From: Eledone cirrhosa
Taxonomy: Eukaryota
Direction of reading: 5' to 3'
DNA: 64,000 nucleotides
Assembly (NCBI GenBank): GCA_964016885.1
Contig: OZ024758.1
Coordinates: 12,710,001-12,774,000, forward strand
Below, piece by piece: positions 3,445-4,322 of the stretch. The translations under genes and the position numbers were made by a program. How positions within the stretch are numbered: position 1 is the stretch's first letter; each line of letters starts with the position of its first letter. The notes beneath the pieces were generated by a model that saw only the letters and a program-made list of their open reading frames with translations, did no database searches and was not told the origin of the DNA.

Positions 3445-3640
3445 ATAGGAAAATGTTTGACCCCGACGGCAGAGCTCAAGCAGTTTCGACGGCTATTTCT
3501 GAGTCCAGAAATAGCGGTCGAAACGGCTTGAGCTCTGCCGTCGGCATCAAACATTTTCCTATTACCCACTCTACTACCCTAAGTATTGAGTACTATGGTG
3601 CGTTATGGTCTATCTGGTTCCTTACCACACTTCCTTCGTT
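3445..3640 (+). mobile_element. Fold-back+tail element family F1, copy 1, in (TA)n
   Basis: Palindrome 3445-3562 (ataggaaaatgtttga..tcaaacattttcctat), then a ~78-bp tail tacccactctactaccctaag..ccttcgtt; TA tracts on both sides. Confidence 0.9.
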
Positions 3641-3688
3641 ATATATATATATATATATATATATATATATATATATATATATATATTT

Positions 3689-3829
3689 ATTAAATTAACA
3701 GATTAAAATTTAAGCAAAGAACGCTGCTTTCACCCTTAATATTTGCTCTACGGTTATTATATATTTGATATATATTTATCTTTATCGAGCCCTCTTTGGA
3801 TTTTAGTCTTCACATTTATTATTATTACT
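3689..3829 (+). repeat. Short interspersed module A in (TA)n; second copy at 38260-38353
   Basis: Both copies share attaaa.taacagattaaa.tttaagcaaaga..cgctgctttcacccttaa and gattttagtcttcacatt.attattattact. Confidence 0.8.
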
Positions 3830-3871
3830 ATATATATATATATATAAATATATATTTATATATATATATTT

Positions 3872-4031
3872 AGTGACGAAACATAAGTCAATTGCATGAA
3901 CTCATAATCCTTTATTTACTGCTATATATATTTCGATGATAGCCATTGAATGGCTATGGCCTCATCAGGCAATTAGTCAGTTCTTAGATATGCCAGCTCT
4001 GTGTTTATAGTGTTGATAGTACCAGAGCCTT
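3872..4031 (-). mobile_element. HHR-bearing element family B (Penelope pLTR/retrozyme-like), copy 1
   Basis: Near-identical reverse complement of 37954-38113; flanked by (TA)n. Confidence 0.85.
3917..3974 (-). ncRNA. Type I hammerhead ribozyme (family B)
   Basis: Minus strand reads attgc CTGATGA ggc-c-atagccatt-c-aatggctat-c-atc GAAA tatata TA gcagt: core, stems I and II, palindromic loop III, AUA triplet. Confidence 0.8.
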
Positions 4032-4115
4032 ATATATATATTTATATATATATATGTTTATATATATATATATATATATATATATATATATATATATATA
4101 TATATATATATATAT

Positions 4116-4322
4116 ATAGGAACGAGTAAGACCCCGACGGCTGAGCTCAAGCCGTTTCGACGGCTAATTCTGGACTAATTGGCAGTCCAGAATTAGCCGT
4201 CGAAACGGCTTGAGCTCAGCTGTCGGGGTCTTACTCGTTCCTATTACCCACTCTACTACCCAAAGTATTGAGTACTTTGGTGCGTTATGGTCCACCTGGT
4301 TCCTTACCACATTTCCTTCGTT
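4116..4322 (+). mobile_element. F1 copy 2
   Basis: Palindrome 4116-4244 (aggaacgagtaagacccc..ggggtcttactcgttcct) plus the same tail; in (TA)n. Confidence 0.92.

Follow-up and report, generated by a model that had tools for sequence, protein, structure and literature searches.

Organization of the F1 copies in the window

Positions 3445 to 4322 hold two copies of F1, a family of palindromes with a tail on one side, and four further copies lie elsewhere in the window, as we call the whole 64,000-nt stretch of DNA that was analyzed. In each copy, an inverted arm without a tail stands head to head with a direct arm that continues into the tail. Copy 1 consists of an inverted arm on the minus strand (3445-3501), whose outer 3 nt are indistinguishable from the (TA)n target, followed on the plus strand by the direct arm (3502-3562) and the tail (3563-3640). 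Copy 2 has its inverted arm at 4116-4176 (minus), its direct arm at 4184-4244 (plus) and its tail at 4245-4322 (plus), and a 7-nt apex spacer (4177-4183, no strand), which looks as if a little of the arm's inner sequence had been copied a second time, separates the arms. We give family positions on copy 2: 4184-4185 is the common 5' limit of the family homology, 4244 is the fixed 3' end of the tailless form, and the end of the tail is the second fixed 3' end. Copy 3 (6733-6925, minus) comprises a tail (6733-6810), a direct arm (6811-6864) and an inverted arm (6865-6925), and copy 4 (31837-32046, plus) an inverted arm (31837-31899), a 9-nt spacer (31900-31908), a direct arm (31909-31968) and a tail (31969-32046). 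In copy 5 (56178-56357, minus), the tail lies at 56178-56255, the direct arm at 56256-56302 and the inverted arm at 56303-56357. Copy 6 (57271-57432, minus) has a tail (57271-57348), a direct arm of only 22 nt (57349-57370) and a much longer inverted arm of 62 nt (57371-57432).

With two F1 copies and the tail as queries, BLAST against the window recovered all six copies reported in the first-pass annotation, as well as a seventh piece that it had overlooked. This is a solo tail of another F1 subfamily (56428-56505, minus), which sits in the same (TA)n tract as copy 5 and starts exactly at the arm/tail boundary. The one-sided tail, described as about 78 bp long, measures 78 nt in all six copies. 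Arms of 50 to 60 bp had also been described; this suits five copies, in which the arms overlap over 47 to 61 nt, but not copy 6, with its 22 nt. Overall, the insertions span 160 to 210 nt and contain no open reading frame (ORF). Whole copies folded far better than shuffled sequences with DNA energies (z scores of -13 to -18, and -5.4 for copy 6), and the arm plus tail of copy 5 folded as RNA no better than shuffles (z score of -0.16).

The window is DNA of animal type in which simple repeats make up 39% and TA runs 15%, and we take its other repeats to resemble those of octopus. All seven F1 pieces sit in TA runs. A+T-only runs of 13 to 75 nt flank 13 of their 14 ends; at the remaining end the run is 5 nt long and is followed by one G. 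Rfam returned no match in the window at the gathering score. E-value scans of two copies gave generic hairpin and AT-rich matches below threshold only, weak microRNA ones among them, and no hammerhead, twister or HDV family. A Pfam search of 104 of the 114 non-simple window frames of at least 55 aa (10 repetitive ones were left out) detected no reverse transcriptase (RT) and no GIY-YIG or other nuclease domain. We also looked by eye for a degenerate terminal repeat linking the left end with the tail end and rejected it, as the two are mismatched within copies.

The arms pair by copy and the apices differ

The mean left-right distance between arms was 0.065 within copies and 0.234 between copies, and 1 of 720 permutations gave a value as low, which bears out the earlier proposal that the arms pair by copy. 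The sole nearest neighbor was the arm's own partner for 9 of the 12 arms, with one tie and two misses; both misses belong to copy 4, the oldest-looking copy, which MAFFT aligned poorly. The opposite arm was also said to mirror each outer variant. It does so generally, but the outer variant of copy 4 is mirrored only in part (two small indels). In a tree of the arms of the six window copies, neither a left-only nor a right-only clade appeared, in agreement with the prediction made from the sequence, with strong support on just one of nine inner branches.

Most of the mirrored variants (4193, 4218, 4231, 4236, 4237) are common alleles of the family, and the outer arm of copy 6 matches the loose-end consensus of 2420 reads in run X21, i.e., a high-copy subfamily. 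The two changes mirrored in copy 3 were absent among the alleles listed. As the mirrored variants are mostly common alleles, the matching arms point to a shared source template and not to fold-back in itself; any mechanism that copies one source RNA twice would yield them.

We compared the divergence of the arms with that of the tails in five copies, copy 6 being excluded for its short overlap and its distinct subfamily. Arm-arm differences amounted to 15 of 278 positions (5.4%) and tail singletons to 11 of 390 (2.8%), with a similar rank order among copies and a ratio of 1.9 from small counts. Some tail singletons are family alleles, which would only push the ratio up. An arm-arm difference of about twice the tail decay indicates that the F1 arms were likely identical when inserted and have since decayed independently. 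Gene conversion between the arms was considered and set aside, since the ratio is that of independent decay of identical arms and no later homogenization is needed. The two arms date each insertion, like paired LTRs.

All six apices differ; at first reading, a difference in apex length had been noted. Copies 2 and 5 differ from each other at few sites, yet their apices are different. The spacers of copies 2 and 4 each duplicate the inner arm of their own subfamily, as would be expected from a polymerase slipping at the limit of its template or from end-joining repair. In all six copies the inverted tailless arm extends at least as far as 4190, and in five it is longer than the direct arm; the direct strand starts at about 4184, 4184, 4191, 4185, 4198 and 4225. 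Arms that pair by copy, apices that differ between near-identical copies and an arm-arm difference of about twice the tail decay indicate that the palindrome was, with high probability, made at each insertion.

Abundance, fixed ends and joints in sequencing reads

Our evidence comes from the window, from the public reads of 4 of 23 listed runs and from published papers. Reads were compared with the direct arm and tail of copy 2 (4179-4322). Runs X21 and X22 are reduced-representation runs whose library apparently cuts at AATT inside both F1 arms; 22,259 of 12.5 million reads and 22,962 of 12.8 million reads, respectively, fitted F1 (about 0.18%). F1 contigs numbered 16,812 in a run that bears the same organism label and 40 in another organism, and exact-pattern scans for F1 gave no match in metagenome, viral or prokaryote contigs. 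An abundant family with a unit of about 140 nt places both ends and the junction inside one sequencing read and provides a large set of junction data.

Reads leaving the reference at exactly 4244 into (AT)n numbered 3444 of 22,259 in X21 and 3022 of 22,962 in X22, with an agreement of 0.81 to 0.82, and the start of the tail was covered by approximately 13,000 reads per run. Thus, F1 has two standard 3' termini, one at the end of the arm and one at the end of the tail. The apex of copy 2 was rarely found in reads (depth of 8 to 9, compared with about 800 to 1500 in the next bin) and is rare in contigs as well.

The first-pass annotation had also called for longer, non-palindromic parental copies attached to the ORF of a Penelope-like element (PLE). 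A longer non-palindromic form does extend upstream of 4184 in contigs, namely one contig with 93 loose letters (X5) and the plurality sequence of 105 contigs (X1). These two sources are identical at 26 of 30 upstream letters, with an agreement within X1 of only 0.46, and the upstream motif has no match in the window. An ORF-bearing parent was not found among the window frames and contig collections scanned; the ORF is not expected in the F1 copies themselves. Three contig records step back along the F1 unit as partial tandems would; the window has no such form.

Of 20 read joints, 15 were listed, and 14 of these link pieces on opposite strands. The low end falls at 4184-4197 in 13 of the 14; the second piece of these joints begins at 4222, at 4238 (four joints), at 4241 or inside the tail at 4250-4281 (seven joints). 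The tailless piece of each joint was deduced from side lengths, a variable region may have broken the alignment in the four joints at 4238, and several joints recur in two runs. Among the joints listed, seven of the 13 head-to-head ones have no overlap, so that the inverted arm holds sequence missing from the tail-bearing strand; the reverse arrangement, in which a full direct strand would carry a short inverted arm, occurs in none of the 13, from a biased library. No fully palindromic joint was among those listed, probably because of AATT cutting in both arms and poor sequencing of hairpins. Palindromic joints are therefore probably under-sampled, and the share of asymmetric forms is not to be read from these counts. 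A tail-primed cDNA cannot fold back into an inverted arm that it does not contain; the asymmetry thus favors a pair of cDNAs, each primed at its own end, and the non-overlapping forms could also have arisen when one side was deleted after insertion.

Penelope-like features of F1

The layout is that of an inverted-pLTR Penelope insertion, as first suggested: in all six copies an inverted, 5'-truncated copy stands head to head with the direct one, the tail is one-sided and the target is TA. Descriptions of PLE insertions include a 5'-truncated copy lying next to the direct one in inverted orientation, a tail confined to one end and (TA)n as the target (PMC8557442; PMC3846280), and the list of (TA)n-target PLEs in the PMC8557442 supplement includes cephalopod families. 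We consider a Penelope-like origin of F1 highly probable, and the copies are likely dead, non-coding 3'-end stubs of a very abundant Penelope-like retroelement. Their structure is that of a standard Penelope-like insertion shrunk to a stub, a layout already published, and the family may already be in a repeat library. Stubs of the F1 type are easily misfiled as MITEs or microRNA hairpins.

Pen2a_Av and its relatives (PMC3846280; scheme in Fig. 2 of PMC8557442) share with F1 a head-to-head inverted 5'-truncated copy whose length may fall below or exceed that of the direct one, a tail restricted to one end and a simple-repeat target, and possibly also partial tandems, and Arkhipova et al. (2013) describe the adjacent inverted pLTR with an optional tail (PMC3846280). 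F1 differs from them in its size of 160 to 210 nt without an ORF, in its tail of 78 nt against 30 to 40 nt, about twice the usual length, in arms with a sharp common inner limit and in a target duplication that is unreadable in (TA)n. The Naiad, Neptune and Hydra clades resemble F1 in their (TA)n target and in the placement of a hammerhead-like motif, a putative half motif in F1, some 100 nt or less from the 3' end (PMC8557442). A comparison by words of 10 to 15 nt with the Naiad, Chlamys and Hydra consensus sequences in the accessible PMC8557442 supplement gave no match apart from one chance hit. The Poseidon element from Anolis (PAc) has, in vitro, an AT-rich target like that of F1, extends both strands and uses two RT starts that delimit the tail (PMC11167929); F1 would share these features, but with the starts placed on opposite strands within a single insertion. 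An octopus repeat annotation counts active Penelope-like families and, in its accessible text, does not use the word palindrome (PMC13282606).

Reading by eye, we found a putative 3' half of a type-I hammerhead-like motif at 4195-4229 (plus). It consists of GAAA (4202-4205), a 6-pair stem III around a palindromic loop, GTC (4222-4224) and then GGGG (4202-4228 in all), which follow one another as they do in the 3' half of type-I hammerheads listed for PLEs (PMC8557442 supplement; PMC4209133). Descriptor scans found the CUGANGA half in none of the F1 copies, and it is missing from the 30 upstream letters of the longer form. A strict hammerhead descriptor returned nothing, and a relaxed one returned seven sites, none in F1. 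Naiads have no canonical hammerhead, some having part of the core (PMC8557442); the half core of the Naiad, Neptune and Hydra PLEs is the CUGANGA half, whereas F1 has the GAAA/GUC half. In copy 6 and in one read joint, the direct strand begins at or next to the hammerhead-like triplet, two cases that prove nothing. A metazoan retrozyme, with head-to-tail tandem monomers and a complete type-I hammerhead (cf. PMC7229834), was also considered and rejected, as F1 copies are dispersed and head to head and have no complete motif.

Complete minimal hammerheads are present in other families of the window, at 25526, 25848, 31620, 38017 and 60016, all at PLE-type ends. A minimal hammerhead with a variant core lies at 38473 (minus) and has a 10-nt stretch from GAAA onward in common with F1; another hammerhead motif was seen by eye at both 21115-21157 and 37850-37892. 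At 59910-60266, a palindrome with arms of approximately 170 nt carries a complete minimal hammerhead in one arm and a copy damaged at one base in the other, with a short apex duplication. This element is clearly a Penelope-like inverted stub. A clear PLE-end hammerhead in such a palindrome indicates that this genome makes stubs of this kind from PLE ends.

Proposed formation of the palindrome at insertion

We lean towards a mechanism in which two end-primed cDNAs made on one source RNA in a (TA)n tract are joined into a tailed palindromic PLE stub. Both cut strands of the tract would prime reverse transcription on the same source RNA, one cDNA starting at the tail end and the other at the arm end. 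Synthesis of each cDNA would end near 4184, no more than about 60 nt from the arm end, and short stretches of local matching would allow the two to be joined head to head, whether or not one of them folds back; fill-in would then give a palindrome with the tail on one side. In twin priming of L1, the two target strands prime on one RNA, which leaves a head-to-head junction with an inverted segment. The L1 segments usually abut without overlap and the second priming site varies, whereas F1 has a fixed second site and its arms commonly overlap. For a PLE protein, Frangieh (2024, PMC11167929) demonstrated cleavage of AT-rich DNA, extension of the two strands and a pair of start sites between which the tail lies; ribozyme cleavage was unnecessary in vitro and inverted copies were left unexplained in that work. 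Both PMC8557442 and PMC11167929 treat the way in which inverted copies and one-sided tails of PLEs arise as unsettled. By title and start of abstract, in a literature where subscription journals are thinly covered, we found no mechanism paper on twin priming for Penelope-like elements; one may be in print.

A more specific version, which we put forward tentatively, is priming at fixed sites, with both known PLE RT start sites used together on opposite target strands. The tailless cDNA would run to the hard limit of the template, sometimes realigning and re-copying a few bases in a telomerase-like manner, and the tail-bearing cDNA would stop anywhere, sometimes at the hammerhead-like cut site. 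If this is true, thousands of junctions in one genome would show how PLE inverted repeats and tails form.

The fold-back first proposed, in which one arm is copied from the other, keeps its premise that the arms are made at insertion, but the non-overlapping inverted arm sequence of copy 6 and of 7 of the 13 joints speaks against fold-back itself. A single tail-primed cDNA of the same PLE origin would here fold back near 4184, copy itself to the arm end and join the TA target, the asymmetry being due to later deletions. The overlap of 47 to 61 nt, almost complete in five of the six window copies, is simpler under this reading and counts against two cDNAs, as does the sharp 5' limit near 4184, which is unlike random truncation of a long element. 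The upstream sequence of the longer form could, judged by eye, pair with the inner arm and offer a natural fold-back point, and self-priming has been proposed for PLE palindromes (PMC3846280, Discussion). Nevertheless, the self-copying polymerase would have to halt at the same base, 4244, thousands of times, the longer arm is the inverted one in five of six copies, and the joints without overlap have no mirror counterpart among the 13, with the library bias noted above. Fold-back from a single cDNA seems unlikely to us, and we favor two primed cDNAs over it. As soon as the two cDNAs share sequence, the product would be the same whether they anneal to each other or the tailless cDNA folds back.

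That all arms end near 4184-4185 would also be expected of a hairpin-shaped non-autonomous element, RNA or DNA, moving intact from palindromic masters and losing its tip after insertion. Long palindromes do lose their tips, which would account for the different apices, and the mirrored variants are mostly subfamily alleles, that of copy 6 belonging to a high-copy one. However, the apices differ between copies 2 and 5 in spite of the few sites separating them, the spacers of copies 2 and 4 duplicate the inner arm of their own subfamily, the apex of copy 2 is rare in contigs and reads, and solo tails, tailless ends and a longer non-palindromic form exist, all of which make such an element improbable. 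We give still less credence to a DNA-transposon MITE with a captured piece as its tail and with gene conversion maintaining the similarity of its arms; it appears very improbable. TA flanks and inverted repeats are MITE traits too, and the window contains symmetric, TA-flanked MITE-like elements. The inverted repeats of F1 are not terminal, however: 78 nt lie outside them on one side in all six copies, which upholds the early remark that F1 is unlike a symmetric MITE. The F1 tail is also found alone, the twofold arm-arm difference needs no homogenization, and internal structure is not uniform within a subfamily, with six different apices including those of the near-identical copies 2 and 5.

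Other elements in the window

Two further families have a palindrome with a one-sided extension. At 37631-37810, an element in (TA)n has the same layout as F1, with 51-nt arms and an extension of approximately 70 nt; its arm/tail junction resembles that of F1, with a local score that 2 of 1000 and 17 of 1000 shuffles attained, which suggests that it is distantly related. At 57003-57160, a near-perfect palindrome with 49-nt arms and an extension of approximately 55 nt lies between TA runs and shows no similarity to F1 (290 of 1000 shuffles).

Symmetric short inverted-repeat elements with TA flanks and no tail, at 13881-13970 and 18276-18380, contrast with F1; we take their ends to be Tc1/mariner-MITE-like. 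An old imperfect palindrome of 457 nt outside TA repeats (13230-13686) has, by eye, tRNA-box-like stretches in its arms and is MITE-like or an inverted SINE pair. The commonest dispersed repeat of the window has approximately ten copies (e.g., 9110-9352, 12872-13082 and 60548-60735), and an 80-nt unit from its end forms approximately ten tandem copies at 39947-40746. A 250-nt repeat is present in three copies that are about 94% identical (14753-15001, 22903-23148 and 48161-48410). Finally, a composite repeat occurs at 3691-4020, between F1 copies 1 and 2, and again at 37965-38352, the two copies differing in the orientation of one segment.
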